A DNA stretch of 64,000 bases from Candidatus Poribacteria bacterium (GCA_022820835.1 JAJEET010000157.1:4315-68314); one strand, 5' to 3'. Shown: positions 3,074-62,642, counted from the stretch's first letter. The notes: generated from the letters alone by a model not told the origin. Numbers and translations: made by a program.

Positions 3074-4018
3074 ATGGATGTGCTATCGCTCGGTATTTAT
3101 GTCGTCGATGTGCTTGGACGACCGATAGATCAGTTCCCTGAAAAAGGGAAATTAGCACTCTTTGATGAACTCGAAATCCATACCGGGGGTTGTGCCAATA
3201 ACACAGCACTCGCGCTCGCGCGCTTGGGGATATCTGTCGGTGCAATGGGTAAAATTGGTACTGACACTTTCGGCGATCTGATACTGAAAACGCTTTCAGA
3301 TAACGGTGTTAACGTTACTGGTATGCGTCAGGCCTCCGACGATAGCACCTCATTTACATTTGTCGCGGTCGCCTCCGACGGAGAACGGACTTTTTATCAC
3401 TATATCGGTGCGAATGGGGCGCTCTGTGAAGGAGACCTTGATTGGGAACTCATTAAATCCGCCAAAATATTGCATATCGCCGGTGCACTTGTCATGCCAA
3501 GTTTTGACGGTACACCGATGGCAAACGTCCTCCGAGAAGCGAAGGCACACGGCATAACCACCTCACTCGACACAGTGTACGACGCAACCGGAAAATGGAT
3601 GGAGACCTTAGAGCCATGTTTGCGACACGTAGACATCTTTATGCCAAGTATTGTTGAAGCGCGACATCTCACCGGTTTATCTGAGTGCCATGAAATCGTC
3701 CAATTTTTGCGAAATAACTACGACATTGATACCATTGCCATTAAGATGGGTGAAAACGGTAGTTATGTCTCTACACCAGAAACAGAGCTTTCTGTCCCTG
3801 CTTATCCCGTCAACGTTGTCGATGGAACAGGTGCGGGAGATGCGTATGTCGCCGGTTTTCTTGCCGGTACTATTATGGGTTGGGACCTGAATGCCACTGC
3901 AGAATTGGCATCGGCAACGGGTGCAGCATGTGTCACAGCCATGGGGACCACCGCAGGCATCCAGAATCTTGAAGAGACCCTAAAAATAAAGGAGTTAACA
4001 GTAACCAGTAACCAGTAA
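3074..4018 (+). CDS. PfkB-family carbohydrate kinase
   Basis: PfkB signature DGTGAGDAYVAGFLAG near the C-terminus and a ribokinase-like N-terminus (LGIYVVDVLGRPID, TGGCANNTALAL). ATG at 3074 follows AGAGGA. The last codons and the stop lie inside repeat copy E1. Confidence 0.85.
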   Translation: MDVLSLGIYVVDVLGRPIDQFPEKGKLALFDELEIHTGGCANNTALALARLGISVGAMGKIGTDTFGDLILKTLSDNGVNVTGMRQASDDSTSFTFVAVASDGERTFYHYIGANGALCEGDLDWELIKSAKILHIAGALVMPSFDGTPMANVLREAKAHGITTSLDTVYDATGKWMETLEPCLRHVDIFMPSIVEARHLTGLSECHEIVQFLRNNYDIDTIAIKMGENGSYVSTPETELSVPAYPVNVVDGTGAGDAYVAGFLAGTIMGWDLNATAELASATGAACVTAMGTTAGIQNLEETLKIKELTVTSNQ

Positions 4019-4146
4019 CCAGTTAAGAGGCACTCGGATAAACTTTAACCAAGAACTCGCGCCTATTTTTAAATATCGGAAATCGGGTCCTTGGTTAAAT
4101 TCTCTTTTCTGGTAACTCGTAACTGGAAACTGGTAACTGTTAAAAG
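3999..4146. repeat. Composite inverted heptad-repeat element, copy E1
   Basis: Left arm is CAGTAAC x3 then CAGTTAAGAG. An inner 10-bp-stem hairpin pairs TTTAACCAAG (4044-4053) with CTTGGTTAAA (4090-4099). Right arm is CTCTTTT then CTGGTAA CTCGTAA CTGGAAA CTGGTAA CTGTTAA. Confidence 0.85.
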
Positions 4147-8175: not shown

Positions 8176-8300
8176 TTCAAGCTTCTTTGTTAATGCCCCA
8201 TATTGTCCAATTTGAAATAAGGATTGCCCATTTTTGTGCAGGTTAGAACCCTGGCATTCAGAAACCTGACACAAGCAGCGATTTCAGACATCAGCATATA

Positions 8301-8346
8301 AATGCCGAGCGTGTTCAAATCATGAACAATTCTCGGCATTTTTTAT
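8301..8346 (+). terminator. Rho-independent terminator after the sigma-WD40 gene
   Basis: AATGCCGAG (8301-8309) pairs with CTCGGCATT (8332-8340). An inner TGTTCA/TGAACA stem is present. The hairpin is followed by a T-run (TTTTTTA). Confidence 0.75.
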
Positions 8347-8483
8347 GAAATAGTCGCCCATTGCGTGCGTGGAAGGCAATGCAGAGTGATGCCATCGGCG
8401 TTTACTTATAATTGGCATCATATTTGCTATGATGCTAACAGAGGATTTGCTGTCAGAAATCGAGTCAGACAGGAGGGGAACCT

Positions 8484-11060
8484 ATGAAAAGGACGCAATT
8501 TCAGAAAGCTTTGGAAAGACCTATCAAAATTATTTCATACCCTACGCGCTTTCTTGCTGAAACTTTGATAGAAAGATTAATTTTACTGCTCTTCGTAGTC
8601 TCAATCTTTTTTTTACCGGATGCTTTTGCTCAAAGTTATACACAGTGGGATTTGCCTGAAGGGGCTAAGGCACGTCTTGGTAAGGGATACGCAGGCGATC
8701 TAAAGTTTTCCGATGATGGCAATCGTCTGATGGTTGAGAACACTGTCGGGGTTTGGGTCTACGATGCACATAGCGGTGTGGAACTGGATTTAATCACAGG
8801 AAATTTATCAGACAGTCTCGCTTTGAGTCCTGATAACAGTACCGTTGCCGGTTGGGGACCAGACGACAAGGTATACCTGTGGAACATAGCCGATAGCGAA
8901 AACAAAGTAACACTTGAAGGAAATACCTCAAGAGTCCGCAGAATGACTTTCAGCCCAGATGGTCGCACAGTTGCTGGTGGGACTTTGGATGACGAGGTAA
9001 TTCTATGGGACGTTGCCTCTGGTGTGCGCATAGCAACGCTCATTGGACACACAGGCTCAATAACTTCGCTCGCTTTTAGTCCAGACAGTACAACGCTCGC
9101 GAGCGGTAGTTGGGACGAGACGGTACGTATGTGGGATGCTGCCACGGGCACGCACAAAATTACGCTCACCAAACACACTGATGGTGTCTTTAATGTTGCG
9201 TTCAGTCCAGATGGTCACACATTGGCGAGCGCAAGCTCCAATGAAGATAAGATACACTTATGGGATGCAGTCAATGGAGCATACAAAGCAACCATTGCTA
9301 CGGATGCCTCTTGTATCGCTTTCAGTTCTGACAGTAGCACTCTGGCAAGTGGGAACTGGAGAGGCGAATTGTACTTGTGGGATGTTGTCAGTGGAACGTA
9401 TAAATCGGAGTTCATTGGGCATTCTCTACGGGGTATTAATTCGATTACATTCAGTCCAGATGGCAAAACACTCGCAAGTGCAGGTTACGACAAACTATAT
9501 CTATGGGATGTTGAAACGGGCGCGCGCAAATTATCAATTACCGGTCATACAGATGGCGTCAACTCAATTGCATTCAGCCCGGATGGCAATACGCTTGCAA
9601 GCGGGAGTCGGGAACAGATTCGTCTGTGGGATGTCAGCACAAGGACACACGCAGCGACGCTGTTTGTAGAAGATTGGACAACTAACGCCAGTTTGGCTTT
9701 CAGTCCAGATGGCAATACGCTCGCGAGTGAGGGTAGTTCCGGGATCCATCTGTGGAACGTTAGCAGCCGCACACACCGCGCAATCGTCAGAGCAGATGGG
9801 CATAAAATAAGTGGTTATGTCAGATACAGATCAATTGCTTTCAGCCCGGATGGTAGATTTCTTGCCCGTAACTCAAGTAATGGCGCGCTGCTATGGTACG
9901 CCGGACGGACCTATAAAACGGCACTCACTGGCCATACAGATGATGGCACTTCAATCGCCTTCAGTTACGATAGTCGAACGCTTGCAAGTGGTAGTGTGGA
10001 CACTATGGTGCGTCTGTGGGATGTTGATACCAATGCCCACAAAGCAACCTTCGCGGGACATACAGACAGTGTTGTGAGTGTTGCGTTTAGTCCGGATGGT
10101 AACCTCCTTGCAAGCGGCAGCGATGACAACACCATAATTCTATGGGATGTTGAGACCGGGAAACCGAAAACCACCTTCGTTGCACATACGGATGGTGTCA
10201 ATGACGTAGTGTTCAGTCCGGATGGCAATACGCTTGCGAGTTGTGGCTATCGGTATGATGCCACTGTCAAACTTTGGGATGTTGAGACGGGTGCGCTTAA
10301 AAGGACCTTCCTTGGACACACGGAAGGTATTACTGAAATTGCGTTCAGTCCGGATGGTCAAACCCTCGCGAGTAGTGGTTGGGATGACCTCATATTTTTA
10401 TGGGATTTGGCACCAGAAGTATCCGTTGGGACAGAAACTGCACAACCTGCTGAGGATGCAAATCGTGATGGTGTGGTAGACCTCCAAGATTTGGTTTTCG
10501 TTGCCTCACAATTTGGACAGCCTGGCGCAGAAAACGCTGCGGATATCAACGAAGACGGTATTGTTGACATAGCGGATATCTTGCTGGTCGCTGGTGCACT
10601 TGAGACCGGCAATGGTGCCCCATCTGCGTATTCGCGGTCAATAGAATTGCTTGCCGCTGCGGAGGTGGAACGGTGGTTAAAACAAGCACAGCACGTTAAT
10701 GACAAAGCACCTATTTTCCAAAAAGGTATCGCTGTTCTTGAAAGCCTCTTGGCTGCGCTGACTCCGAAAGAGACGGTGCTTCTGCCGAACTACCCGAACC
10801 CGTTTAATCCTGAGACGTGGATCCCGTATCAGTTGGCAGCGGATGCGGATGTGACAATCCGCATTTATGCTGCGAGTGGGGAATTGGTAAGGACGTTGGC
10901 GTTGGGATATCAATCTGCAGGCACCTATCAAAGTCGTAGCCAAGCGGCGTATTGGGATGGTAAAAATGAACTTGGAGAACCTGTGGCAAGCGGACTCTAT
11001 TTCTACACGCTGTCTGCCGAGAGGTTCACGGCGACGCGCCGGATGGTCATACGGAAATAA
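8484..11060 (+). CDS. Secreted WD40 double propeller with dockerin-like repeats and T9SS/FlgD-Ig-like C-terminal domain
   Basis: SD GGAGGGG and a signal-like hydrophobic stretch LILLLFVVSIFFLPDAFAQ. About 14 FSPDG/LWD blades. Paired EF-hand dockerin repeats DANRDGVVDLQDL and DINEDGIVDIADIL lie at about nt 10454-10600. The C-terminus has LLPNYPNPFNPETWIPYQL...GLYFYTL. Confidence 0.85.
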   Translation: MKRTQFQKALERPIKIISYPTRFLAETLIERLILLLFVVSIFFLPDAFAQSYTQWDLPEGAKARLGKGYAGDLKFSDDGNRLMVENTVGVWVYDAHSGVELDLITGNLSDSLALSPDNSTVAGWGPDDKVYLWNIADSENKVTLEGNTSRVRRMTFSPDGRTVAGGTLDDEVILWDVASGVRIATLIGHTGSITSLAFSPDSTTLASGSWDETVRMWDAATGTHKITLTKHTDGVFNVAFSPDGHTLASASSNEDKIHLWDAVNGAYKATIATDASCIAFSSDSSTLASGNWRGELYLWDVVSGTYKSEFIGHSLRGINSITFSPDGKTLASAGYDKLYLWDVETGARKLSITGHTDGVNSIAFSPDGNTLASGSREQIRLWDVSTRTHAATLFVEDWTTNASLAFSPDGNTLASEGSSGIHLWNVSSRTHRAIVRADGHKISGYVRYRSIAFSPDGRFLARNSSNGALLWYAGRTYKTALTGHTDDGTSIAFSYDSRTLASGSVDTMVRLWDVDTNAHKATFAGHTDSVVSVAFSPDGNLLASGSDDNTIILWDVETGKPKTTFVAHTDGVNDVVFSPDGNTLASCGYRYDATVKLWDVETGALKRTFLGHTEGITEIAFSPDGQTLASSGWDDLIFLWDLAPEVSVGTETAQPAEDANRDGVVDLQDLVFVASQFGQPGAENAADINEDGIVDIADILLVAGALETGNGAPSAYSRSIELLAAAEVERWLKQAQHVNDKAPIFQKGIAVLESLLAALTPKETVLLPNYPNPFNPETWIPYQLAADADVTIRIYAASGELVRTLALGYQSAGTYQSRSQAAYWDGKNELGEPVASGLYFYTLSAERFTATRRMVIRK

Positions 11061-11065
11061 AAAAA

Positions 11066-11201
11066 TAGTTTTGACCAACAACTCGTGCCTTAGTAAAAGT
11101 ATCTGTAGACGAATTGTTGATCAAAGTTATCGGTTGTCAGTTAAGAGACGGATTTGGATCCACCACAGTCCTCTTTAACGGATAACTAATGACCAATAAC
11201 C
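11066..11201. repeat. Composite inverted heptad-repeat element, copy E2 (degenerate)
   Basis: Hairpin module pairs TTTGACCAACAACTCG (11070-11085) with CGAATTGTTGATCAAA (11110-11125). It continues with TTATCGG TTGTCAG TTAAGAG, a spacer containing TGGATCCA, and CTCTTTA ACGGATA ACTAATG ACCAATA. Confidence 0.75.
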
Positions 11202-11222
11202 ATTGCATGGGAGGCTGAAGCA

Positions 11223-13754
11223 ATGAAAAGGATGCAATTTTCGATTTTAATGCTATTTCTCATTTCAATGTTCTTTCCTCTGGATACGTTTGCTCAGGAT
11301 TATACACAATGGAGTTTACCTGAGGGTGTCAAAAAGAGACTAGGGAAGGGTAGCCTATACGGTACCAGTAATATAGTGTTTTCACCGGATAGCAGCCTGC
11401 TTGCCGTTGCGAGTTCTATCGGTGTCTGGATTTACGATGGATATACCGGTAAAGAGCTGAATCTACTCACGAGGCATACGGGAGGCATTTCAAGTGTCGC
11501 GTTCAGTCCAGATGGAAAAACGCTTGTAAGTAGCAGCTCAGCAGAGTTTTACCTGTGGGATGTTGCCACAGGCGAACATAAAGCCACTTTTACCGGACAT
11601 ACAGCTAACATTACGAGTGTCGCATTCAGTCCGGATGGTAAAACGCTGGCAACTGGTGGAGATGAGAAGGAAGGGCTGATCAAGCTTTGGAATGTTGCTA
11701 CCGGTACGCTCAAATCAACACTCACAGGACATACGGACGGCATCTCAAGCGTTGTATTCAGTCCGGATGGGGAAATACTCGCAAGTAGTGGAAAGTGGTC
11801 AGACGAAACAGTGAAGCTTTGGGATGTTGCCACTGGCACCCTCAAAACGACACTCATAGGACATACGAGCGGCATTATGGATATCGCGTTTAGCCCTGAC
11901 GGGAACACACTTGCCAGTGGTGGTGATTGGTTGGACTACACAGTGCGGCTCTGGGATGTTAACAGTGGCGCGTTGAAAGCAACGCTTATCGGACACATGG
12001 GCGAGATTAAGAGCGTAACGTTCAGCCCGGATGGCAAAACCCTTGCGAGTGGTAGTGATGACGGAACGGTGTGTTTATGGGATGTTAACAGTGCCACTTA
12101 CAAAACGACGCTCTTAGCACACAGCCAAAGTGTCGTGAGTGTAGCGTTCAGCCCGGATGGCAAAACATTCGTAAGCGGGAGTTGGGACGGCACATTGATA
12201 TTATGGGATGCAGTGAGTCTCAAGCGCAGCACGACAATTACTGGACATACGGCGGATTTCTTAAGCATAGCGTTCAGTCCAGATGGTCGAACGATTGTGA
12301 GTGGGAGTTGGGATCGAACCGTACGACTGTGGGATACCACTACTGGGACCAACAGTGCCACTCTCACTGGACATATAGGTCCCATCGAATCCGTAGCGTT
12401 CAGTCCGGATGGTCGAACGGTTGCCAGTTGCAGTGGTATAGATGTCATCAATGGTTGGTTCGGAGATGATTACACGATAAGGTTATGGGACGCTGTTACT
12501 GGCAGACATAAAATGACACTTATTGGACATAAGGAGCGTGTTTATAATATCGCGTTTAGCCCGGATGGTCGTCTGCTTGCCAGTTGCGACGGGCGGCGGG
12601 ATACAAAGGTGTATTTGTGGGATACAGCCACCGGGAATCCGATAGCAACACTGAGCGGTCATAGGGACTTTGTATTCCGTGTCGTGTTTAGCTCAGATGG
12701 GAACACACTCGCCAGTGGTGGTGATTCGGAAATATACTTGTGGGACATTTCCAGCAGACAGCAGAAAATGCGTTTGACTGGGTATACGGGACGTATCTGG
12801 GCTCTTGCATTCAGTCCAGATGGGAAGACGCTCGCAAGTGGCGGAGCAGGTTCGGAGGTGCATTTGTGGGATGTTGCCTCAGGCGCGCATAAGATTGCCC
12901 TCACAGGACATACAGGCAATATCAATAGTGTGGCGTTCAGTCCGGATGGTAAAACCCTCGCAAGTAGTGGAAATTGGAAAGACAGAACAGTGCGCTTGTG
13001 GGATCCTATCAGTGGGGATCACAAATCGACGTTCATAGGATATGCCAGTGGCAATCAGAGCCTTACTTTCAGTCCGGATGGGAAGACACTCGCTGTTGCT
13101 GATATGGGTGGGACAATACTCCTATGGAAGCTTGAAACTATAGAGGAACTGCCGTTGTTGGAAGCGGATGTGAATGGTGATGGTGTCGAAGATGTTCACG
13201 ATTTGGTGCTTGTTGCGGCGAACTTCGGACAGACGGGTCCAAACGCTGCAGATGTCAATGGCGATGGCGTTGTTGACATCGCGGATCTTATCAAAGTCGC
13301 TGCTGCTTTGGATAACGCGGCAGCTGCGCCCCCCGCTGCGATGCTTAAGATAAAAAATATGCAACAGTGGCTTAGGCAAGCGCAGCAATTAGATGCGACA
13401 GATGCAACGTTACAGAGAGGTATTCACTTCCTTGAACAGCTGCTGGGGACGTTAGCACCGACAGAGACGGCATTGTTGCCGAACTATCCGAACCCATTCA
13501 ATCCAGAGACGTGGATACCGTATCAATTGGCAGAGCCTGCGAATGTAACGCTGCGTATCCATTCCGCCGATGGGACATGGGTTCGTACGCTGGCATTAGG
13601 ACATCAACCTGCTGGTATTTATCAACAACGGAACCGTGCGGCGTATTGGGATGGCAAAAATGAACTCGGTGAGCGTGTTGCGAGTGGTGTCTATTTCTAT
13701 ACGTTGAGAGCAGGGAATTTCGCGGCAACGCGAAAGATGTTAATACGGAAATAG
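11223..13754 (+). CDS. Secreted WD40 double propeller with dockerin-like repeats and T9SS/FlgD-Ig-like C-terminal domain (paralogue of 8484..11060)
   Basis: SD GGGAGG and signal peptide MKRMQFSILMLFLISMFFPLDTFAQ. About 14 blades. Dockerin repeats DVNGDGVEDVHDL and DVNGDGVVDIADL. Same C-terminal LLPNYPNPFNPETWIPYQL...GVYFYTL domain. Confidence 0.85.
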   Translation: MKRMQFSILMLFLISMFFPLDTFAQDYTQWSLPEGVKKRLGKGSLYGTSNIVFSPDSSLLAVASSIGVWIYDGYTGKELNLLTRHTGGISSVAFSPDGKTLVSSSSAEFYLWDVATGEHKATFTGHTANITSVAFSPDGKTLATGGDEKEGLIKLWNVATGTLKSTLTGHTDGISSVVFSPDGEILASSGKWSDETVKLWDVATGTLKTTLIGHTSGIMDIAFSPDGNTLASGGDWLDYTVRLWDVNSGALKATLIGHMGEIKSVTFSPDGKTLASGSDDGTVCLWDVNSATYKTTLLAHSQSVVSVAFSPDGKTFVSGSWDGTLILWDAVSLKRSTTITGHTADFLSIAFSPDGRTIVSGSWDRTVRLWDTTTGTNSATLTGHIGPIESVAFSPDGRTVASCSGIDVINGWFGDDYTIRLWDAVTGRHKMTLIGHKERVYNIAFSPDGRLLASCDGRRDTKVYLWDTATGNPIATLSGHRDFVFRVVFSSDGNTLASGGDSEIYLWDISSRQQKMRLTGYTGRIWALAFSPDGKTLASGGAGSEVHLWDVASGAHKIALTGHTGNINSVAFSPDGKTLASSGNWKDRTVRLWDPISGDHKSTFIGYASGNQSLTFSPDGKTLAVADMGGTILLWKLETIEELPLLEADVNGDGVEDVHDLVLVAANFGQTGPNAADVNGDGVVDIADLIKVAAALDNAAAAPPAAMLKIKNMQQWLRQAQQLDATDATLQRGIHFLEQLLGTLAPTETALLPNYPNPFNPETWIPYQLAEPANVTLRIHSADGTWVRTLALGHQPAGIYQQRNRAAYWDGKNELGERVASGVYFYTLRAGNFAATRKMLIRK

Positions 13755-13881
13755 TTATCAGTTTTCAGTACGATTTTTTCTACGAAAAAATCTTTCAGTT
13801 TTCAGAAAGAGACATCTGGAACTATCACAACCCTCTTTACTGATAACTGATAACTGAAAGGCGTACTCGCCGTACTGATAA

Positions 13882-13884
<3 letters not shown>
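13752..13884. repeat. Composite inverted heptad-repeat element, copy E3
   Basis: Fills the whole gap between two convergent stop codons. The termini TAGTTATCAG ... CTGATAACTA are inverted repeats. It contains two CAGTAC-hairpin-TTTCAG modules and the core AAAGAG-N21-CTCTTT. Confidence 0.85.
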
Positions 13885-15154
<1,270 letters not shown>

Positions 15155-15184
15155 ATCTTAAACAGGTCTCAGGATCTATCTTTC

Positions 15185-15454
15185 TCATTGGGACCCCATG
15201 CTGTTAAGCAACTCTATTTGCAGGCGCGTAAACTCAACAAACCGTGTATAGCGTTGTGGGATCGAGGTGTTTATTGCCTGCTCCTTTTGACGCGTCACTT
15301 CTTTATATAACCGCATTACCTCTTCGTCTCGATCGAACGGTTCGGTTATATCTAAGGACTGTGCCCCTATGTAAACCCATATCCCGAAGGTGAGCACGAT
15401 CATAAGCAACCCGACAACAATGTAAGGTCTAAAAATATTGCCAAGTCTTTTCAT
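15185..15454 (-). CDS. Small single-pass membrane protein, unknown function
   Basis: Strong SD (GGAGGAGG) lies 6 nt before ATG at 15454. TM helix YIVVGLLMIVLTFGIWVYIGA. The longer ORF-track start at 15514 overlaps the upstream gene end and lacks an SD. Confidence 0.5.
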   Translation of the reverse strand: MKRLGNIFRPYIVVGLLMIVLTFGIWVYIGAQSLDITEPFDRDEEVMRLYKEVTRQKEQAINTSIPQRYTRFVEFTRLQIELLNSMGSQ

Positions 15455-15470
15455 CTTAATCCTCCTCCTA

Positions 15471-17963
15471 TCAATGGATAATCTTCGCGTTGAGGACCGG
15501 ACTATCTTGTACAAACGGTTTGCCGTTGATTGTGGCTGAACCTCGGAATCTGAATTGATAGGTCTTATCTTCTAAGGAACCGATAGCCTTCAGTGGTACT
15601 TTGACCTCAGTTTCATTCACCGGAATCGTAATAGTTTCCGTGGTGAAACCCTCTGGCACATCAATTGGTGTGAGTGTGACAACATCCGTAAAACCGCCTT
15701 GTCGGACGATTGTTAAAGTCAGTATAGCTTCCTTTGTCACTGCCGGTGCTTCGCTGTCCGTCTTTTCGGTATCCGCGTTTGGGTTCCCTGCAATCGCTAC
15801 AGTATCTCCTTGTGGGACTGGGGTCGCGTCGCCATTCGCAGCCACAGTTGCTGGGAAAACGATGCTAAAACGCAAAGGCTCTACTGTTACAATAAAGGGG
15901 GCTTCAAGAATTGTCAGCGGAATAGCGGGGGTCGATTGGCTCACCGTCTCTCTGTCAACGCTCGCCGTGCCAACAACAGAAATATAGTTGATGCCCGGCA
16001 CCGGTACGACAGAGAACTGTTCTCTCCGCTCAAAGCTGCCGGCTCTCACCGAGAGAACTGCCTCGTTTTTACCTGCGGCAATATTGACAGCTGCTGCGGT
16101 TACACGAGGGGGCAACCCGACGACCGAAAGCCTGATGGGACCTGTGAAGTCGTCGCGCCTATTTGCTGTCACATGGAGGTTGACTGTTTTATTATGCACA
16201 ACACTCGCGTTAATCTCAGCAAGCGTCAACGTGAATTCCGGTGCTTCCATCACGGTCAAGAGCATCGGTGCAGCCGTCCGTTCCACCTGACGACTCCCGA
16301 CAGCACTGATACCTGCTACCGAGAACGGCATCAGCCCAAGCGGTGCATCCCACGGTGCAGTTACCGTAATGACAGCCTGATTTTTCCCGGCTTCAATGAC
16401 AGCGGGACTCACGTCAAATGTTTTTGGCAGTGTAGGACAGTGTAAACGGATAGGACCGCTGAGTCTATCAAGACGGCTAACGTTGACCTGTATTGTGAAG
16501 GTGCCACCGCGACTGACGCGCGGGCTATCCAAGCCAGACGGACGATTCTGGCTGTCAAGCACGACTGCACTGAGGGTAAAGTTCGGTTCCAGCGGACGGA
16601 CATTCAAGCGATATGAATAAGCATCTCCGCCTTGGTTGTTCAGGTCTCGGATAGCGATAGAATATTTCCCTGCTTGCGTGAAATTCTGTTCAATACGTGC
16701 GTCGCTGCGGCGCGCATCGTCGTTGACTGCCAAGACCTGGTCGTTCTCAGGAGCGTAAAGTGTGAGAAGCGCGTCCAACTGCGATGAGAGCCTAAGTGCC
16801 TCGACCTCAAAGACGAGAAATTGCGGTGTTTTTATCTCAAACGCAAATCGGTCAACATCCCCCTGTTTATCAATTTTCCCGTTGATCGTTATCGGTGTGT
16901 TTACAGCGTTCGCTTTATCAGCCGAATCGTTGGGTTCACTTTCCGCCATTTCTGCCAAATTTCCGATAGCAAATGGGTGCGGATTACTCGTCAATCCAGA
17001 AGGTGTCTTAACGCGTAGTGATTGCTGCCCCGTCGGCGTTTCAGCATCTATCGAGACCTGTATAGCATTCACAGTCTCAAGGTTCGCACCCGTAACAGCT
17101 ATCGTATTATCAGTTCCACGTTGTCCGCCGAGCGGAAAAATTGTCTCAAGATACGGTAACTCACCGATACTTAAACGATAACGAAATCCACCGCCGCCTT
17201 TGTAGCGGATATCCCGAAGATGTAGTGTGTATTTCCCTGCTGCCAGTGCGGTGTAATCGAGGACGGAATCCAATCCGCTGCCCTGTCCGCTGTTCGCCAC
17301 TTCAGCACCGTTAGGGTCCCGAAGAACGAGATATGAATCCAACGGAGACCCGATGCGCTGTGCCGTCACTTCACAGATAAGTCGTGCGTTCTTCTTCAGA
17401 TCAAAACTGAAAATGTCCTCATCATCAATGGATGCGATCACACCGTTGACTGTGACAGGCAACTCCAACCAATTTGACATTTCAGTCTTTTCAGTCGTCT
17501 CGTTTTCATTGACTTCCGGTAGGTTACCGATAACGAAGTTTTGTGCGTTGGAAACACCATAAGGTGTGATGATTCGGAGTTGTTGGACACCTAACGGTGC
17601 ATCGGGGGCAATTGTCAAAGAGGCAACTAACCGCACGTCGGTCGGGACCTGTCCAGAGACACCGGTGCCGTTAAATAGGACTGCTGCTTGCTGGGTCTCT
17701 TGTCTGATTTCCGCAGTGATGCCGCTCCCGCTGAACCACACGGCTGTTGCTGTGTCAAGATTCTTACCCGTGAGGGTCACTTCTACGTTTTGCCCCTGTT
17801 GCGCGCCCTGTGCGGAGACGCTCGATAGTGTAGGTACAACCTGCGCGTGTGCGAAGCCAATTGTCAGGAAAAAGATCACAAAGACGAGAACAGACTGTTT
17901 TGTTAAGGGACCAGAAAACGACGAATTAACCCATCTCCTCTGCTGAAATAACACATTAGGCAT
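15471..17963 (-). CDS. Secreted multi-domain protein with two pre-peptidase C-terminal (PPC)-like domains
   Basis: Signal peptide VLVFVIFFLTIGFAHAQ and SD GAGGTG. Two PPC-like modules are present (DDEDIFSFDL...YTLHLRDIRYKGGGGFRYRLSI and GDVDRFAFEI...YSIAIRDLNNQGGDAYSYRLNV). Ig-like repeats flank them. Confidence 0.7.
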   Translation of the reverse strand: MPNVLFQQRRWVNSSFSGPLTKQSVLVFVIFFLTIGFAHAQVVPTLSSVSAQGAQQGQNVEVTLTGKNLDTATAVWFSGSGITAEIRQETQQAAVLFNGTGVSGQVPTDVRLVASLTIAPDAPLGVQQLRIITPYGVSNAQNFVIGNLPEVNENETTEKTEMSNWLELPVTVNGVIASIDDEDIFSFDLKKNARLICEVTAQRIGSPLDSYLVLRDPNGAEVANSGQGSGLDSVLDYTALAAGKYTLHLRDIRYKGGGGFRYRLSIGELPYLETIFPLGGQRGTDNTIAVTGANLETVNAIQVSIDAETPTGQQSLRVKTPSGLTSNPHPFAIGNLAEMAESEPNDSADKANAVNTPITINGKIDKQGDVDRFAFEIKTPQFLVFEVEALRLSSQLDALLTLYAPENDQVLAVNDDARRSDARIEQNFTQAGKYSIAIRDLNNQGGDAYSYRLNVRPLEPNFTLSAVVLDSQNRPSGLDSPRVSRGGTFTIQVNVSRLDRLSGPIRLHCPTLPKTFDVSPAVIEAGKNQAVITVTAPWDAPLGLMPFSVAGISAVGSRQVERTAAPMLLTVMEAPEFTLTLAEINASVVHNKTVNLHVTANRRDDFTGPIRLSVVGLPPRVTAAAVNIAAGKNEAVLSVRAGSFERREQFSVVPVPGINYISVVGTASVDRETVSQSTPAIPLTILEAPFIVTVEPLRFSIVFPATVAANGDATPVPQGDTVAIAGNPNADTEKTDSEAPAVTKEAILTLTIVRQGGFTDVVTLTPIDVPEGFTTETITIPVNETEVKVPLKAIGSLEDKTYQFRFRGSATINGKPFVQDSPVLNAKIIH

Positions 17964-17988
17964 TGTTAATCACCTCATGTTTGAAAAG

Positions 17989-18017
17989 TTATAAAGAACA
18001 CGTAAGTCCATAGGCAA
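17989..18017 (-). promoter_or_regulatory. Sigma-70-type promoter candidate for the PPC-domain gene
   Basis: On the minus strand: TTGCCT (18012-18017), a 17-nt spacer, then TTATAA (17989-17994). Confidence 0.4.
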
Positions 18018-18303
18018 CAAACTGGGCTAGATATACGTAAAGGCACGTCGATATTCAAACTCACTTGACCGAACCGCAAGGAAAAATAAAAAAAATGGAT
18101 GCGGAATACGCTTTCGCTGGCGCAGCAACTCGGAGATTCGCTAACTCGCCCCACTCATATTCCACGTGGTAATTGGCTAAGGTATATTCAATCGGAGCGA
18201 TGAAGCCTTTGATGGAAACTTTGGTATCACCATCAATATTAAGCGCGATTTTGTTGCAGGCTGGCTTCATATCTTCCTCAGGACTTTGGAATCTCTTGAG
18301 CCA

Positions 18304-18497
18304 GCGAGTACGCAGTTAACAGTTGTCAGTACGGCGAGTACGCCTTTCAGTTTTGACCAACAACTCGTGCCTTAGTAAAAGTATCGGACTCGAGTTGTTG
18401 GTCAAAGTTAAGAGATGTTAGAATTATCACAACCCTCTTTTAACTGATAACTGATAACTGATAACTGAAAGGAATCGTACCCGATTCCGTACTGATG
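18304..18497. repeat. Composite inverted heptad-repeat element, copy E4 (most complete)
   Basis: Order of parts: CAGTAC-GGCGAGTACGCC-TTTCAG; a 16-bp perfect hairpin (18352-18367 with 18391-18406); GTTAAGAG; a spacer ending ATCACAACCCTCTTTT; AACTGAT x3; CTGAAA-GGAATCGTACCCGATTCC-GTACTG. Confidence 0.9.
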
Positions 18498-18558
18498 ACA
18501 CAATGGACAAAGGCACGAATTGATGGTCAACACGGAAGATCAGTGCTATGGTCCATAG

Positions 18559-20004
18559 TTAAAAGATTCCTACAATCGGTTCGCCTTTGACTAACTCGCG
18601 GGGTTGATCTAAATGATTGTAGACGATCGTATGCGGATCAATACCAAGCGTATGGTAGACCGTAGCGAGGATGTCGCGCGGATGCACCGGATTTTCAAGT
18701 GGTGTTGAACCTGTTTCATCAGATTTCCCGTAAACCTGTCCACCTCGGACCCCTGCGCCTGCGATCAATCCTGTGTAGCAATAGGGCCAGTGATCGCGTC
18801 CATCTGGTGCGTTGCTGTTTCCGGAGGTGCTTATCCCCATCCGTGGGGAACGCCCGAATTCACCAATCGCCAAGACAAGCGTTTCCTCTAAGAGTCCGCG
18901 TTGATCCAAGTCTTCGAGCAGTGAAGAGACGGCACTATCTAACTTCGGACAGTGAAGGTTTTTCAGCGGACCGAAGTTGGTTGCGTGCGTATCCCATGCG
19001 GTCGTGTTCGGATTACCGTTTGCGACAGAGGGCCAGTTCACCTGAACGAAACGTGTTCCTGCTTCGACTAACCGTCGAGCAAGGAGTGTGCTCTGTCCGA
19101 AAGTATGTCTACCGTAGCGATCGCGAACTTCATCGGGTTCTTGCGAAAGATCGAAAGCGTTACGAGCGCGTTGCGATAGGATGAGGTTGTACGCCTTCTC
19201 ATAATACTCGTTCAAGGCATAGGAATCCGCTACCTTGTCAATTTCGGGCATCCCGGCGTTAATCGTTTCGAGGAGATCTTTCCGGCGTTTCAGACGCACG
19301 GGCGGCACCTCTGGACGTAAACTTAAATCGTCGAGGTTAATCTCCTGATTCGGGTCTTGGAAGAGGAAGTACGGGTCGTAGGCTCTACCCAGGAAGCCGG
19401 CGTTTCCACCTTTGCCGATGATGTTACTCTCTTGCATCGGACGTGGGAGTTGAACAGCAGCGAGCATCGGTTCATCTGGTGGTCTGTAGTTGGCGATATG
19501 TGCTGCGGCGTTCGGGTGGTCAGCGGGTGAAGGCGGATCAAGTTGCCCTGACGGTGCGACTTTGTCTGGTGTTTCACCGGTAACCATCTGATACATCGCA
19601 GCGGTATGATTGAAAAGCCCTGCCGGTGTGTAACTTACGGAGCGAATCAAGCAGGCTTTGTCCATCTGCTGCGCCAAAAGCGGCATGGTTTCGGACAATT
19701 GGATGCCTTGTACATTGGTCGGAATCGGTTTAAACTCACCTCGAATGTTCGAGGGAGCTCCCGGTTTCGGGTCCCAGATGTCGAGATGGCTTGGGCCGCC
19801 TTGTAGGAATAGGAGTATGACCGAGTTGGCTTTCCCCCACCCGTTTAGCGATTTTGCGGGGTCAACTGCCGTATTCGCGTTCGCTTGGAGTGACAATACC
19901 TGTGGCAGACTAATGCCGAGCATCGCCGCACCACCGACACGTAGAAATTCACGACGTGAGAACCCGTCACATAAGCGTCCGGGTAATTGTGGTAACGATA
20001 ACAT
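18559..20004 (-). CDS. DUF1501 family protein (sulfatase-like fold) with Tat-type signal
   Basis: Twin-arginine signal SRREFLRVGGAAMLG. Family motifs LFLQGGPSHLDIWDPKP and GEFGRSPR...GRDHWP. Confidence 0.9.
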   Translation of the reverse strand: MLSLPQLPGRLCDGFSRREFLRVGGAAMLGISLPQVLSLQANANTAVDPAKSLNGWGKANSVILLFLQGGPSHLDIWDPKPGAPSNIRGEFKPIPTNVQGIQLSETMPLLAQQMDKACLIRSVSYTPAGLFNHTAAMYQMVTGETPDKVAPSGQLDPPSPADHPNAAAHIANYRPPDEPMLAAVQLPRPMQESNIIGKGGNAGFLGRAYDPYFLFQDPNQEINLDDLSLRPEVPPVRLKRRKDLLETINAGMPEIDKVADSYALNEYYEKAYNLILSQRARNAFDLSQEPDEVRDRYGRHTFGQSTLLARRLVEAGTRFVQVNWPSVANGNPNTTAWDTHATNFGPLKNLHCPKLDSAVSSLLEDLDQRGLLEETLVLAIGEFGRSPRMGISTSGNSNAPDGRDHWPYCYTGLIAGAGVRGGQVYGKSDETGSTPLENPVHPRDILATVYHTLGIDPHTIVYNHLDQPRELVKGEPIVGIF

Positions 20005-20037
20005 CTATTGTGTCCTCCGTTTTTTAGTAATAACAAT

Positions 20038-22685: not shown

Positions 22686-23585
22686 CTACGTAAGATCCCA
22701 GAGTAGGACGGAGTTGTCTTCACTGCCACTTGCGAGTACATTCCCATCAGATGCATATAGGACATTCCTGACACTCCTTGTGTGTCCAGCGAGTGCACCT
22801 TTAGGTTCGCCTGTTTCTGCGTCCCACAGCCGCACTGTCTCGTCGCGCCCGCCGCTCGCGATCGTGTTGCCATCTGGGGAATATGCGACGCTCCAGACGT
22901 AGCCGACATGTCCTGTAAGCGTTGTCATTAAGCTGTTTTCAAACGTATTCCACAACCGAATTGTCCCGTCAATACTGCCACTTGCAAGTGTGCTTCCATC
23001 TGGGGCATACGCGACGGAGTTGACGATATCTTTATGTCCTGTGAGCGTGGTTTTGTGCCTACCAGTCGCAGCATCCCAGAGGACGAGGGTGTCATCTCCA
23101 CTTCCGGCAGTGAGCGTGCTGCCATCTGGGGAATACACAAGACCTCTAACGGAACTTGTATGTCCTTCAAGGACGTTTTTTGCGTCTCCGGTGTTCGCGT
23201 CCCACAGACGTACGGTGCCATCGGGACCTCCACTTGCAACTGTGGTCCCGTCTGGTGAATAGACGACGCTTCTCACAGCATCCGTATGTCCTTTGAGCGT
23301 GGCTGTTGGTGCGCCGCCGGCAGCATCCCACAGAATGATTGTGTTATCTACCCCGCCACTTGCGACAGCCGTGCCATCCGGTGAAAAGGCGACACACCTG
23401 ACATACTCCTTATGCTCCACGAGGAGATTAAGTCCTAAACCACTATCTACATCGTATATCCAAACGCCGATGTCGCAGGCAACTGCAAGTTGCGCTCCAT
23501 CAGGTGAGAAGGCGATATCTCCAGTTAGATTTCCTTGATCAAGTCGTGCTTTGACCCCTTTAGGTAAATTCAATTGTGCATCCAT
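22686..23585 (-). CDS. Stand-alone seven-bladed WD40 protein (no signal peptide, no C-terminal domains)
   Basis: Seven (F/Y)SPDG...LWD blades. It starts directly at the LPKGVKARLDQG motif that follows the signal/TM segment in the three large paralogues. Confidence 0.85.
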   Translation of the reverse strand: MDAQLNLPKGVKARLDQGNLTGDIAFSPDGAQLAVACDIGVWIYDVDSGLGLNLLVEHKEYVRCVAFSPDGTAVASGGVDNTIILWDAAGGAPTATLKGHTDAVRSVVYSPDGTTVASGGPDGTVRLWDANTGDAKNVLEGHTSSVRGLVYSPDGSTLTAGSGDDTLVLWDAATGRHKTTLTGHKDIVNSVAYAPDGSTLASGSIDGTIRLWNTFENSLMTTLTGHVGYVWSVAYSPDGNTIASGGRDETVRLWDAETGEPKGALAGHTRSVRNVLYASDGNVLASGSEDNSVLLWDLT

Positions 23586-28804: not shown

Positions 28805-28868
28805 TTACCAAGGTGAGGTATTATAGTTCGCCGTGTAAAAATGTTGCACTTGACATATTTTCTTCATA

Positions 28869-28898
28869 ATTATATCACATTTTTATAATGTAATTCAA
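28869..28898 (-). promoter_or_regulatory. Sigma-70-type promoter for the cytochrome-WD40 gene
   Basis: On the minus strand: TTGAAT (28893-28898), an 18-nt spacer, then TATAAT (28869-28874). Confidence 0.5.
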
Positions 28899-29492
28899 GA
28901 AAAAATCGGATTCAACCCTAGAGAACGTTATTTTTCACTAACGTGAACTTGAAAATAAATCTGTAGGTTGGGTTGAGCGGTAAATACACACTAAAAACCG
29001 TATAATTTGGACAAATATGCCGCTTTTCAAGGCACTTTCTGCATAAATAGCGGTAGCGAAACCCAACATCCCACTTTTATCAAACTCACGTTTCACTAAG
29101 TTCTGTAACAGCGGAAACAGGCGTAAAATCCCTATACCCTTTCAGAACGCAACCCAAACAGAGGAAAAATTGTCCCCCGTTTGCGAAAATAAAAAAGAAA
29201 TTTGCTTCTCTACATTATATATGTTACCATATATATACTAATTTAATTATATTAACTAATCAAAAATATAAAAATAACCCGTCACCCACACAAAGGCGGA
29301 CAAAACGTAGACTCGGTTAAAACGAAAACCCTCTTGCCTAACGACTCACAGCCACCACAAACCCAAATCGAAAATGTTACACTTTTCGCCTTTTTTTCAA
29401 TTACGAACCCATAACACAATCGCCTTTGAACCCTTACATCGACTAAGCTTATCGCAATGGCACATCCATACCCAATGTTACAAAAGTATGAC

Positions 29493-29599
29493 GCAGATTT
29501 TTGCGTACAAAAAAAATTAAAGTGCCTTTATGACAAAAATCACAACAGCAGATTTTTGCGTACAAAAAAAATTAAAGTGCCTCTATGACAAAAATCACA
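29493..29599. repeat. Tandem direct repeat, 2 copies, period 55 bp
   Basis: GCAGATTTTTGCGTACAAAAAAAATTAAAGTGCCT[T/C]TATGACAAAAATCACA at 29493-29544 and again at 29548-29599, with one mismatch. Confidence 0.9.
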
Positions 29600-29809: not shown

Positions 29810-29887
29810 TGTTTCGTTGTTTTGTTCTTATGTAACAGACACATTTTTTACCAAAATTTCACGCCAAAAAAGGAGATAATTTTTTCA

Positions 29888-54881: not shown

Positions 54882-54960
54882 GGAATAGCAGTCAGCCATC
54901 AGCCATCGGAAACTGTCAGTAAAAGAAGTTCGTTTTGATGGATCCAATAGCTGATGGTTC
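54882..54960. repeat. Composite inverted heptad-repeat element, copy E6 (short)
   Basis: GGAATAG CAGTCAG CCATCAG CCATCGG AAACTGTCAGTAAAAG ... AGCTGATGGTTC. Confidence 0.7.
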
Positions 54961-54982
54961 CATGACATAGATAGGGTACCTT

Positions 54983-57512: not shown

Positions 57513-57636
<124 letters not shown>

Positions 57637-57645
57637 TAAAAGACA

Positions 57646-60265: not shown

Positions 60266-61651
60266 TCACGGATTGCTTCCGCGATGTGAGTGCAGTTTTT
60301 CACGCATACGTTCGTAAGCGAGGTTCGCGCCAGCGATGTTACCCGCAGCTGGTCCTATCTGGAGTTGCGCGATAGTGCCGGAACCGAAAAGATCCTGCAC
60401 CGGTTGGAGTTGTAAATCGTCATCCAGACATGGTAAACCTCGGACGATCGGAATCTGGTATTTTGTGATTAATTCCGCTAAAAATCCGTAACGACGTAGA
60501 TCAAATTGATATCCCGTTGCCAAAATGACGCGAGACACATTTGTGATGGTGGTTCGCGTCGTTTCAATTTTCAACCTTTGTGCCGATGGAGATTCTTCTG
60601 TTGAAACGATGTTATGGATACAGGTTTTAGGATACAGATCAATGTTTGAAGCACTTACTAACGTCTCCATAATATTAGGGGTGATGCTTCCTTCGCCTCT
60701 ATTTTGCTGAATGATGTCGTAGCGCCGCCTAAAATTGGTCTCGTTTGCGAATTCGGTGAGTGCCTTGGGACCTAACCAGATCGGTGGAAAATCAAATTGC
60801 TCCATCTTCAGCTCTTTCCGCGCGATTAACACCACGTGATGCCCCTGCTCGCTGAGACTTTTAGCGAGTGTTCCCGCCGTTAATCCACCTCCAACGATAA
60901 CAATTTTACCACCAGTGTGTTGCCCATCTTTATTAGAATCGACTGTAAATTGCGATGCGTGTAGAATCGTTTTAGGATATTTGCGTTGCCACTGTGCAAA
61001 CTCCGGCGGTACATAAGCACAGTCGTCAGCTCCGATGGCGAGGACGACACAACTGCTCCGAAACCCGGTATTGTTCGTTGAGATGAGTCGGAACGGAAAT
61101 CTGCCCGCGCTTTTGTCCCATCGTAATTTTTCCACCTCAAACTGATGATAGACCTTGTATGCTGCGAGTTCAGTAAGTATCGTCGTGCAGAAATCCCGAA
61201 AGAGTTGGGTGGAAGGCTGCGAGTATGGAGGTGCTAACTCATCCTCTCGGTTGTGGTGCTCTGCGTATTCAACAACACCGAGTGCATCCGGTGTAATGTG
61301 ATGAACAGCTGGAGATCGGAGGAAGGTCATCCCTTGGCGTTCTGTTTTGTGTTTCCATTGTGTAAGCGGGAGTGGATAGCGATCAAGAATTACGAGGCGG
61401 TTCGCTGCTGTCGGTATTTCGCGGAGCAGTCGAAGTGCGATAGACACACCGTGTATGCCACCACCGACAATGGTAATGGGGATATTCCGGTGTGCTAAGT
61501 AGTTTTCAGTTTTCAGTTGTCGGTTGTCGTTGGGAATGGCTTTCAGCTTTCGGCTTTCGGAAACCGTCAGTAAAAGGGTTTCGGATTCGCCAGACCCTTT
61601 TTCTATTAATGGCTGATGGTTGATGGAAACTGATGGCTGATGGCTCGTCAT
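60266..61651 (-). CDS. FAD/NAD(P)-binding oxidoreductase (two Rossmann motifs; N-hydroxylating monooxygenase-like)
   Basis: ITIVGGGIHGVS and IVIVGGGLTAGT. The first 50 codons are encoded by repeat copy E7, so the true start is uncertain. Confidence 0.7.
   Translation of the reverse strand: MTSHQPSVSINHQPLIEKGSGESETLLLTVSESRKLKAIPNDNRQLKTENYLAHRNIPITIVGGGIHGVSIALRLLREIPTAANRLVILDRYPLPLTQWKHKTERQGMTFLRSPAVHHITPDALGVVEYAEHHNREDELAPPYSQPSTQLFRDFCTTILTELAAYKVYHQFEVEKLRWDKSAGRFPFRLISTNNTGFRSSCVVLAIGADDCAYVPPEFAQWQRKYPKTILHASQFTVDSNKDGQHTGGKIVIVGGGLTAGTLAKSLSEQGHHVVLIARKELKMEQFDFPPIWLGPKALTEFANETNFRRRYDIIQQNRGEGSITPNIMETLVSASNIDLYPKTCIHNIVSTEESPSAQRLKIETTRTTITNVSRVILATGYQFDLRRYGFLAELITKYQIPIVRGLPCLDDDLQLQPVQDLFGSGTIAQLQIGPAAGNIAGANLAYERMREKLHSHRGSNP
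61500..61645. repeat. Composite inverted heptad-repeat element, copy E7
   Basis: TAGTTTT CAGTTTT CAGTTGT ... CGGAAACCGTCAGTAAAAG, a stem GGGT..ACCC, then CTTTTTC ... GGCTGAT GGTTGAT GGAAACT GATGGCT GATGGC. Confidence 0.85.
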
Positions 61652-61663: not shown

Positions 61664-62497
61664 TTAATCGGTGTTGGGTCCGGGTAGATGGAAACTTTTA
61701 AGCGCGAAGGTCTCTGAAAACAACTCTTCGGTTGCCCGGTAGCGGCTGTATCTGTATTGGACGATACCGATAGCGGGTGCGACCCAGTAAATTGCGGGTG
61801 GACTAATCAAGAAAATCGAGGGATCGGCACTATCACCGTAAACGATCTCTTCGTGTACGACATACGTCGTATAACTTCCGGCAGGTACAGTAACCTGTAC
61901 ATCCTTCTCTGCGACATAACGCGTGACTTTCACGGGTATACCTACAGTTTTCTCAAAAACGACCCATTGCTTTCCGACTTGCAGCGGAAAATCCCAGAGA
62001 CGGCGCGGCGGGAAATGTTTCTTGTGTTGGACAATAACGGTAGCGGCAGAGGATGGCACGAAAATATCGAAAGCGGATTCCTCCAATGCTTGTGCGGTCT
62101 TTGAGAAGTAGGTCGCAAAGATCGGGAGCGGGAATACATCTAGGAATTCAGCATCTAATCGTAGATAAAAAGCATTTGCGACCAAGTGATCAATAGCCTG
62201 CCAGTTGAATTGGTCAGTATCAACGGGGTTAAGTTCGCTGACAGTCATCTGCCGATGCGTTGTTCCACTGATATCGCGTGTTCCTTCAACACGGCGTGTG
62301 AATTCCTGATCGGTGTTCACGTTGACATAAGTCCATGCGGAGCCAGTATCTGTCGGGAAGTCAATCGCGTGGAGTCGTCCGGTAGTATTCGGCGGCGGCA
62401 GCGTGATTTCGCCGTGCGGGTCAACGAGTCCTTCGTCGCCGCAACTGGAAAGGAGTAGCAGGAGAATGGCTATCAGCCATCGGCTTTCGGAAACCAT
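61664..62497 (-). CDS. Putative lipoprotein, unknown function
   Basis: ATG 62497 gives MVSESRWLIAILLLLLSSCGDE, which is lipobox-like (LSSC), but there is no SD. The ORF stays open upstream to ATG 62647, which overlaps the preceding stop (TAATG). Confidence 0.55.
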   Translation of the reverse strand: MVSESRWLIAILLLLLSSCGDEGLVDPHGEITLPPPNTTGRLHAIDFPTDTGSAWTYVNVNTDQEFTRRVEGTRDISGTTHRQMTVSELNPVDTDQFNWQAIDHLVANAFYLRLDAEFLDVFPLPIFATYFSKTAQALEESAFDIFVPSSAATVIVQHKKHFPPRRLWDFPLQVGKQWVVFEKTVGIPVKVTRYVAEKDVQVTVPAGSYTTYVVHEEIVYGDSADPSIFLISPPAIYWVAPAIGIVQYRYSRYRATEELFSETFALKSFHLPGPNTD

Positions 62498-62642
62498 CAG
62501 CAAAACGGCTTTCGGAAACCTTCGGCTGACGGCTTTCAGGAAAGAAAAGAGGCGTTTTATAACGCTTGCGTTTTTGCTGGCAGCTGGCGACTGATGACTA
62601 ACTGCTAATGACTGATGACCGATGGCTGATGGTTGATGGTTG
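62465..62642. repeat. Composite inverted heptad-repeat element, copy E9
   Basis: Left arm heptads contain GGCTTTCGGAAACC units. Centre is AAAGAAAAGAG-GCGTTTTATAACGC. Right arm is CTGGCAG CTGGCGA CTGATGA CTAACTG CTAATGA CTGATGA CCGATGG CTGATGG TTGATGG. Confidence 0.85.

Follow-up and report, generated by a model that had tools for sequence, protein, structure and literature searches.

Heptanucleotide tandem repeats, also known as short tandemly repeated repetitive (STRR) sequences, have served as targets for the fingerprinting of cyanobacteria since 1990. Their canonical units, reportedly set out by Mazel in 1990, are said to be CCCCAGT, TTGGTCA and CAACAGT, with heterocystous or filamentous cyanobacteria as hosts. 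Elhai et al. are likewise said to have found, in 2008, small dispersed repeats (SDR) nested in the heptamer repeats of Nostoc punctiforme. Here, we analysed a 64,000-nt stretch of DNA from Candidatus Poribacteria bacterium (GCA_022820835.1 JAJEET010000157.1:4315-68314; hereafter the window), in which nine intergenic loci carry elements built from heptad repeats, with the best exemplar at 18304-18497. Each of these elements is an imperfect palindrome of 80-200 bp, whose 5' arm consists of tandem 7-nt units containing (C/A/T)AG and whose 3' arm repeats their complement. Between the arms, a short AAGAG/CTCTT-like stem closes the hairpin with a 15-40-nt loop, and smaller hairpin repeats often lie within the arms. 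We consider it probable, at roughly 0.6, that these elements represent the STRR-type heptanucleotide-repeat class in a phylum new to it, and that they would act as inter-cistronic punctuation.

Comparison with described repeat classes

Both the cyanobacterial STRR sequences and the over-representation of heptamer repeats in bacteria have been described in the literature. An earlier reading of the window, made from the sequence only, had listed the nine loci and regarded the family as undescribed. This does not hold, as tandem heptanucleotide repeats in bacterial intergenic DNA are an already described class. In Anabaena, Nostoc and Lyngbya, hairpins of 7-bp STRR units are located between hupS and hupL, where they were proposed to perhaps stabilise transcripts or couple translation, and termination was also proposed (PMC2670836). 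Furthermore, heptamer repeats near recF and recO in Nostoc influence reporter expression via a partner factor. The poribacterial elements resemble STRR sequences in that several 7-nt unit types occur per genome, dispersed and intergenic, and form inverted arrays which fold between cistrons. They differ from them in their poribacterial host and in the dominance of the paired form, which has a recurrent AAGAG/CTCTT core. CCCCAGT, TTGGTCA and CAACAGT are absent as tandems from the window. Because the host is not a cyanobacterium and the canonical units are absent as tandems, the elements fit the wider heptamer-repeat class and are not STRR in the strict sense.

The same composite architecture with the same polarity was observed on plasmid pNPUN01 of Nostoc punctiforme at 957-1094, 44799-44889 and 46622-46822; the arms of three composites in this species are CAGGAGT...ACTCCTG, GAGTAAT...ATTACTC and GGCAGGA...TCCTGCC. 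Altogether, 150 kb of N. punctiforme plasmids contained four composites, the fourth of which has different anchors, beside several solitary arrays. Going by their reported description, the SDR would also have a counterpart here in the tiny hairpins (24-33 nt and 57 nt) which lie inside heptamer arrays and inside each other.

The unit TAACTGA is abundant as a direct repeat in the intergenic DNA of Beggiatoaceae, 15 cyanobacteria and 5 Bacteroidetes, located mostly just upstream of start codons and differing by 7-nt indels between strains, and a Beggiatoaceae genome contains 169 direct sets and only one inverted set (MacGregor 2015, PMC4679880). The identical unit is found in the window as a tandem at 18441-18468 (4.0 copies) and 13839-13857 (2.7 copies, Tandem Repeats Finder consensus ACTGATA), again intergenic, with the forward array ending just before a start codon and with 7-nt indels. 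However, the published repeats are solitary and direct and related heptamers are rare there, whereas inverted pairs and many other units are present here, and Poribacteria are not among the taxa reported in that study. A BLAST search of the element against plasmids returned only a 22-nt TAACTGA match on a Stanieria plasmid, where it forms a solitary array before a start codon.

In the case of the Xanthomonas GGGAATC and Nostoc GGGGA(T/C)T heptamers, 89-93% are intergenic, near the end of the upstream open reading frame (ORF), and 70-75 convergent inverted pairs able to form stem-loops are present per Xanthomonas genome (Rehm 2015, PMC4692102). The intergenic position near ORF ends, the inverted stem-loop pairs and a length that varies between related species are common to the Xanthomonas heptamers and the poribacterial elements. 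In contrast, the units described there are G-rich and quadruplex-forming, none of them being present here, and no core stem or nested hairpins were described.

Like the REP, BIME and REPIN families, the elements are noncoding extragenic palindromes at gene ends or between cistrons, occur as fixed-orientation doublets, and combine long residence with occasional spread. Unlike these families, they have no conserved 20-40-nt REP sequence and no GTAG/CGTC head, their arms are variable heptads, and no RAYT (Y1 HUH transposase) is encoded among the proteins of the window. CRISPR arrays possess 23-50-nt repeats with unique spacers, compared with 7-nt units without spacers here, and no cas genes are present in the window. 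With respect to features of miniature inverted-repeat transposable elements, GGAATAG...CTATTCC ends are found in some copies, together with intragenomic copies and filled/empty sites, while neither target-site duplications nor a parent insertion sequence were seen. The sequence-only reading was correct in separating the family from CRISPR arrays, ERIC and classical REP and in noting that no transposase or cas gene lies near the elements, as none was found in the 64-kb window. The Rfam search which it had proposed matched no family, either for the window at gathering thresholds or for 3900-18700 at E<=1. Combined, this is no new kind of system, but it places useful new constraints on an old question. 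The occurrence in Poribacteria and in phage genomes, as well as the strict arm polarity, seems to be unreported in the literature searched.

Statistical support for the repeat family

All nine loci were recovered at the positions where they had been listed, and the observation of the nine elements is confirmed, with corrections to their parsing. Tandem Repeats Finder called period-7 arrays at or within eight of the nine, with none called at 11066. In a self-match scan of the window for periods 4-12, scan intervals with at least 19/21 matches numbered 26 for period 7 and 0 for each other period. The pattern CAG-N4-CAG-N4-CAG occurred 14 times in the window, where 0.32 occurrences would be expected from shuffles that preserve dinucleotides, none of which gave more than 2. 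Thirteen of these 14 matches are situated within the listed loci, whereby those on the plus strand correspond to left arms and those on the minus strand to right arms.

Long-hairpin folding was observed for seven of the nine loci (z = -4 to -9 compared with dinucleotide shuffles), but the loci at 15019 and 61500 yielded poor hairpins (z -0.1 to -3.2). The motif ATCACAAC[CG]CTCTT, attributed to three copies, occurs exactly three times (13824, 18426 and 57588). Other details needed revision. The '20-40 nt spacers' do not describe the elements at 3999, 11066, 13752 and 18304, where the spacer and part of the arms are separate nested hairpins. A GGAA(A)TAG start is present in four elements (13747, 15019, 54882 and 57513) and not in five, and the one at 15019 adjoins the start codon of the minus-strand TGT gene and no stop codon. 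The statement that elements occupy most gene-end gaps is incorrect: nine of the 25 gaps of at least 90 nt are filled, and none of the elements lies in 18.5-54.9 kb. A genuine repeat family with one common architecture is upheld. No tRNA or tmRNA was found in the window.

Anatomy of the elements

The elements and one collapsed remnant are arranged along the window as follows, with fold z-scores for most of them.

Element 1, 3999..4146, between pfkB and an ABC ATPase gene (both +); z -5.8
Element 2, 11066..11201, between two WD40 genes (+); z -4.1
Element 3, 13747..13888, convergent gap between WD40b (+) and TGT (-); z -8.2 / -9.5
Element 4, 15019..15154, between an 89-aa gene and TGT (both -); GC-type units (CAGCxxT / GGCTTTC-type), weak hairpin, z -0.1 / -1.3
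Element 5 (exemplar), 18304..18497, downstream of DUF1501 (-); z -8.4
Collapsed remnant, 20007..20037, gap between PSCyt2/PSD1 and DUF1501; the minus strand (gene orientation) reads ATTGTTATTA joined to CTAAAAAACGGAGG
Element 6, 54882..54961, between two + genes; short GC-type heptad hairpin, z -2.4 / -3.5
Element 7, 57513..57637, beginning right behind the TGA stop codon of an OmpA-domain gene (+); z -4.7
Element 8, 61500..61645, between two minus-strand genes; mixed CAGTTTT and GGCTTTC/CTGATGG units
Element 9, 62464..62642, between two minus-strand genes; GC-type heptad palindrome, z -7.2 / -5.7

The 5' arm of Element 1 (3999-4029) consists of (CAGTAAC)x3 followed by CAGTTAAGAG, its interior contains a diverged nested 57-nt hairpin (4044-4099), and its 3' arm (4102-4139) begins with CTCTT and continues with CTGGTAA-type units. 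The stop codon of pfkB (4016-4018) lies inside the third CAGTAAC unit. Element 2 comprises a nested 57-nt hairpin (11069-11126) and then a short heptad hairpin (11127-11201) with the core TTAAGAG...CTCTTTAA, and 37 nt of it are 100% identical to 18351-18387 of Element 5. The terminal inverted repeats of Element 3, GGAAATAG...CTATTCC, include the TAG stop codons of both flanking genes, and its core at 13806-13838 is accompanied by mini-hairpins at 13766-13798 (+) and 13854-13877 (-). Element 4 has an orthologue in the related locus L166.

In the exemplar, Element 5, the 5' half is composed of the arm CAGTTAACAGTTGTCAG, a mini-hairpin (18327-18350) and a nested 57-nt hairpin (18351-18407). The core (18408-18443) reads TTAAGAG...ATCACAACCCTCTTTTAA, the 3' arm (18444-18467) is (CTGATAA)x3, equal to TAACTGA units, and a second mini-hairpin is found at 18465-18494. 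Just beyond the element, the 57-nt hairpin is present once more as a half copy (18507-18532). The site of the collapsed remnant is occupied by an element in most of the relatives examined. Element 6 has the sequence GGAATAG CAGTCAG CCATCAG ... GCTGATGG, while Element 7 consists of GGAATAG, (TTTCCAG)x4, a core ending in AATCACAACGCTCTT and a 3' arm of CTGG/CTGA units. The plus strand of Element 8 folds much better than the minus strand, and 42 nt of this element are 88% identical to Element 9. Since the Pfam domain of the long ORF begins at residue 59, Element 8 lies upstream of the true gene start.

The copies in Elements 2 and 5, the diverged copy in Element 1 and the half copy at 18507 belong to one family of 57-nt nested hairpins, TTTTGACCAACAACTCG...CGAGTTGTTGGTCAAAG. 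The four mini-hairpins of Elements 3 and 5, with lengths of 24-33 nt, share the form CAGTAC-stem-loop-stem-TTTCAG. The unit types observed include CAGTAAC, CAGTTAT, CAGTTTC, CAGCCAT and TTATAAG, and each locus has its own unit sequence and copy number, so that alignment columns are not homologous. Stop codons in all frames were considered as the purpose of the arms. This holds for TAACTGA, CAGTAAC and CAGTAGC but fails for CAGTTTC, CAGTTTT and CAGCCAT, and the explanation is not general.

Occurrence and placement in Poribacteria

The gene content of the window, with PSCyt2/PSD1, DUF1501 and many WD40 proteins, is of PVC type. The TGT protein is also encoded on a 212-kb metagenome scaffold (L001), which is 99.4% identical to window positions 4144-25004, and the closest genomes by TGT (83-91% amino-acid identity) are all metagenome-assembled genomes (MAGs) of Candidatus Poribacteria. 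A cyanobacterial source of the window, which the WD40 genes and the heptamers might suggest, is rejected in view of these relatives and the PVC-type genes. Further syntenic TGT loci were gathered from poribacterial assemblies, multi-megabase contigs among them. The elements were found in independent assemblies and are therefore not an assembly artefact. A TGT scan of metagenome contigs gave no poribacterial locus (best identity 64%) and served only as a negative control.

Prevalence was scanned over 250 kb from ten poribacterial loci, with 2.18 Mb from 157 non-poribacterial loci as controls. The poribacterial loci contained 53 period-7 arrays, or 2.1 per 10 kb, compared with 0-0.16 per 10 kb for periods 5, 6 and 8-11 in the same loci and 0.28 per 10 kb for period 7 in the controls. 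None of the 53 arrays was situated in a gene interior, although about 90% of the poribacterial DNA is coding. Among gaps of at least 50 nt, arrays were present in 33 of 108 tandem, three of nine convergent and none of four divergent gaps. The array-bearing gaps folded with a median z of -5.3 (83% below -3), against -1.4 (21% below -3) for the other gaps (p = 1e-10). An element typically begins at or over the stop codon of the preceding gene and stops a few bases short of the Shine-Dalgarno (SD) sequence or start of the next one.

Stop codons are often found within the elements. Among poribacterial orthologues with 87-95% identity, the TGT protein (gene at 13882-15012 in the window) ranges from 375 to 395 aa, and the window pfkB (3050-4018), whose stop lies inside an element, is nine codons longer than in the poribacterial locus L002. 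The stop codons of both genes lie inside or at elements, and the repeats therefore remodel protein C-termini.

Arm polarity and viral contigs

Since a perfect palindrome reads alike on both strands, the arrangement of CAG on the left and CTG on the right is a real structural property and does not depend on orientation. Adjacent pairs of arrays in the poribacterial loci were ordered AG-type then CT-type in a ratio of 13:0 by automatic typing, and of 15:0 after two pairs had been retyped by eye. In IMG/VR, the pattern (CAGTNNN)x3-CAG, gap 20-50, CTG-(NNNACTG)x3 matched 87 stretches, while the everted control pattern had 0 matches. The ACTG partner of CAGT arrays was found downstream in 275 cases and upstream in none, and solitary arrays are common too. 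This fixed polarity argues against a purely neutral slippage origin and suggests a trans-acting factor which reads or propagates the heptads.

Some viral contigs with a GC content of 0.57-0.62 carry roughly one CAGT-heptad hairpin per kilobase. One of them, L190 (IMG/VR UViG_3300025506_000008), encodes MuA-like and MuB-like transposition proteins, Gam and an endolysin, and has a hairpin at almost every gene boundary. Hairpins at nearly every boundary were likewise noted in Mu-like phage contigs of GC about 0.6, where L190 is grouped with L235, L242 and L249, and L360 and L361 are also listed. No close cultured phage was found for the high-GC Mu-like phage contigs. A related prophage (MuA 82% identical) has solitary (CAGTAGC)n arrays only, one before each SD, and the genes beside it (TusA, DsrE, FlpD and Hdr-like) give only a hint of the host. 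Other viral contigs, with GC about 0.51, possess the poribacterial AAGAG/CTCTT core. In the phage contigs, the strand opposite the genes folded better in 30 cases versus 8, a count obtained from non-independent contigs with crude ORF calls.

It is conceivable from this distribution, but on balance improbable, that the CAG(T)-anchored heptad palindromes of STRRs, Poribacteria, high-GC hosts and Mu-like phages constitute one cross-phylum system. The polarity would then be imposed by dedicated trans-acting machinery, either a heptad-binding protein or a hairpin-specific nuclease or transposase, and the phages would copy host elements to punctuate their operons.

Turnover of the elements

Across the 20.9 kb shared with the 99.4%-identical scaffold L001, the only multi-base indel is one TAACTGA unit in the right arm of the exemplar, at 18440. 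In other species, the orthologous gaps usually also contain a heptad palindrome, often with different units. Here, both arms are changed together, with CAGTTAT/ATAACTG in the window versus AAGTTAT/ATAACTT in L002. The PSCyt/DUF1501 site has AT-type units in some genomes and GC-type units in others, and the collapsed remnant in the window. In L164, a 57-nt hairpin is inserted in an arm, an insertion that is missing from L166 and L167. The units are genome-specific, as shown by TTATAAG in L167 and L002 and by CAGTTAT and CAGTAAC in the window.

A comparison of L002 and L167, whose genes are 88-90% identical, showed a mosaic of gaps. In the gap between TGT and WD40b, the whole element is flipped end to end between unchanged flanks. 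Another element shows 94-100% identity between the two loci, exceeding the flanking genes (80-96%), and four other orthologous gaps contain unrelated elements. Within L167, an all-against-all BLAST of gaps revealed one pair sharing 128 nt at 96.9% identity and another sharing 53 nt at 100%, unique core sequence included.

The changes seen in the elements comprise the gain or loss of whole 7-nt units, flipping, copying between gaps, and replacement or collapse, with the site usually still occupied. The comparison of filled and empty sites suggested by the sequence-only reading thereby gave filled, collapsed and replaced states at orthologous sites. Because the elements are resized, flipped, copied and replaced while the site stays occupied, they behave as resident, occasionally copied palindromic repeats of the REP/BIME/REPIN type and not as a conserved sequence-specific RNA gene.

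Proposed role and alternative explanations

As inter-cistronic punctuation, the elements would operate either at the DNA level, by forming a cruciform or a hairpin in a single strand, or within polycistronic RNA. Punctuation could mean protecting, processing or insulating the neighbouring cistrons, and a trans-acting factor would account for the fixed arm polarity. Several observations weigh against this proposal. A role in the sense transcript is unsupported by wobble asymmetry, as the opposite strand folds better in 22/33 tandem gaps (p = 0.07). The main hairpins are not followed by a T-tract, their tails being A-rich and leading into the SD, and a terminator-pattern scan gave 13 matches against 13.9 expected, with promoter-like matches likewise at shuffle level. 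Neither a transposase nor a RAYT, and hence no mobilising enzyme, was found among the proteins of the window, and no target-site duplications were seen at the elements. In addition, the divergent gaps (0/4 with arrays) are too few to prove gene-end specificity, and all comparative loci represent one syntenic neighbourhood.

The elements are not canonical intrinsic terminators, given their A-rich tails, and a promoter or terminator reading is rejected because the pattern counts are at shuffle level. More generally, the elements could be selected RNA structures of the sense transcript, which would stabilise 3' ends as hairpins or work as terminators or attenuators independent of any factor, with the heptads as a by-product of slippage. 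We regard this as possible though unlikely. It would agree with the strictly gene-end position starting at stop codons, the strong fold z-scores and the site occupancy that is kept across species despite sequence change. The mini-hairpins also have T-rich tails (TTTCAGTTTT) in the orientation first met by incoming transcripts, and transcript stability or termination was proposed for the cyanobacterial STRR hairpins (PMC2670836). However, the main hairpin has A-rich tails without a U-tract, the terminator matches equal the shuffle expectation, and the sense strand folds better in 11 gaps compared with 22 for the antisense strand. Moreover, many elements are situated between genes that are probably co-transcribed, for example PSCyt2/PSD1-DUF1501, and elements lie between nearly every gene of the Mu-like phage region. 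The finding of either orientation at one site fits any symmetric model and lends no specific support to sense-strand RNA structures.

A decidedly unlikely alternative is that a protein recognising the 7-nt units in single-stranded RNA, single-stranded DNA or duplex DNA binds to repeated sites along the arms and regulates downstream translation initiation, as proposed for the TAACTGA repeats; cold-shock-domain, S1, CsrA-like and nucleoid proteins would be candidates. The strict unit orientation relative to the dyad is what oriented sites would be expected to show, unit types are genome-specific, and the forward TAACTGA-type 3' arm comes to within a few bases of the SD or start, as in Beggiatoaceae, and on a cyanobacterial plasmid a forward array stands alone immediately ahead of a start codon. 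Set against this are the coexistence of many AT-type and GC-type units in one genome, the occlusion of the sites that hairpin pairing would cause, the solitary arrays of related prophages in the opposite (CAGT) sense orientation, and the fact that no candidate protein was found. Still more doubtful is that the elements are neutral by-products of replication slippage, which is known to favour 7-nt units, and of intrastrand template switching that homogenises quasi-palindromes in gaps free of counter-selection, devoid of mobility and function. Their indels do occur in 7-nt steps, as also reported for Cyanothece and ascribed to polymerase slippage in the literature, their turnover is fast, and exclusion from coding DNA is expected of units whose length is not divisible by 3. 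But neutral processes cannot explain the strict 5'-CAG/3'-CTG polarity, as they would be expected to produce everted pairs too, of which there were 0/15 poribacterial cases and 0 viral ones. Near-identical copies of 53-128 nt with a unique core at unlinked gaps, elements (94-100%) more conserved than the flanking genes (80-96%) and the recurring AAGAG/CTCTT core cannot be accounted for by neutrality either.

The presence of a hairpin-forming heptamer architecture in Poribacteria, an unrelated and uncultured phylum, and in Mu-like phages provides a new handle on the question of STRR function. Further handles are offered by the strict arm polarity together with flipping, copying and resizing over very short evolutionary distances, and, given the wide phyletic distribution, the responsible protein could feasibly be sought by co-occurrence. 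The elements alter protein C-termini and are also likely hot spots of misassembly and annotation errors in MAGs.

Other features of the window

Besides the heptad elements, the window contains further repeats. At 47482-47552, a convergent gap has a GC-rich hairpin, CAGGCGGGGTTCCAAACCCCGCCTG, followed by two copies of a 25-nt direct repeat (TGCCGATGTGTTCGCGTAAGTCCGA). This hairpin is also nested inside a heptad element in L002 (about 9910-9945), and the motif GCGTAAGTCC recurs in other gaps. At 50230-50452, the motif TTACCTTGCGGTTA is found in a 110-nt tandem repeat, whose 2 copies are 96% identical. Several poribacterial gaps (18071-18087; L004 12400-12430; L002 5503-5697) have the complement of this motif, GAACCGCAAGG(A/T)AAAAT, shortly before start codons, and the window contains four matches at no more than 3 mismatches, where 0.38 would be expected. 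The motif could belong to promoters or 5'-UTRs, or to a second family of repeats. In addition, a 55-nt tandem repeat (29493-29599; 1.9 copies, 98% identical) is located in an AT-rich and unusually long divergent gap of 1017 nt (28805-29821).

Near the exemplar, a decayed gene at 17967-18270 (-) is frameshifted compared with L001 by a 1-nt indel at 18087, and matches only the initial ~90 codons of a gene of ~540 aa, of which L004 has an intact copy. The element-free region of 18.5-54.9 kb includes a restriction-modification or defence-like island (36030-42300). Its genes encode a fusion of a C5 cytosine methylase with a C-terminal fragment resembling HaeII endonuclease, along with a VWA protein, an SNF2 helicase, a D12 adenine methylase and a 396-aa protein without annotation. 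Five WD40 beta-propeller genes are present, of which three are large paralogues (5356-8175, 8484-11060 and 11223-13754) and the others lie at 22686-23585 and 27353-28804. The gene at 5356 is annotated in L001 with sigma-70 region 2/4 matches and contains a 126-nt DNA repeat (6982-7269), the gene at 27353 contains a PSCyt1 domain, and the gene content of the WD40 block varies between relatives.

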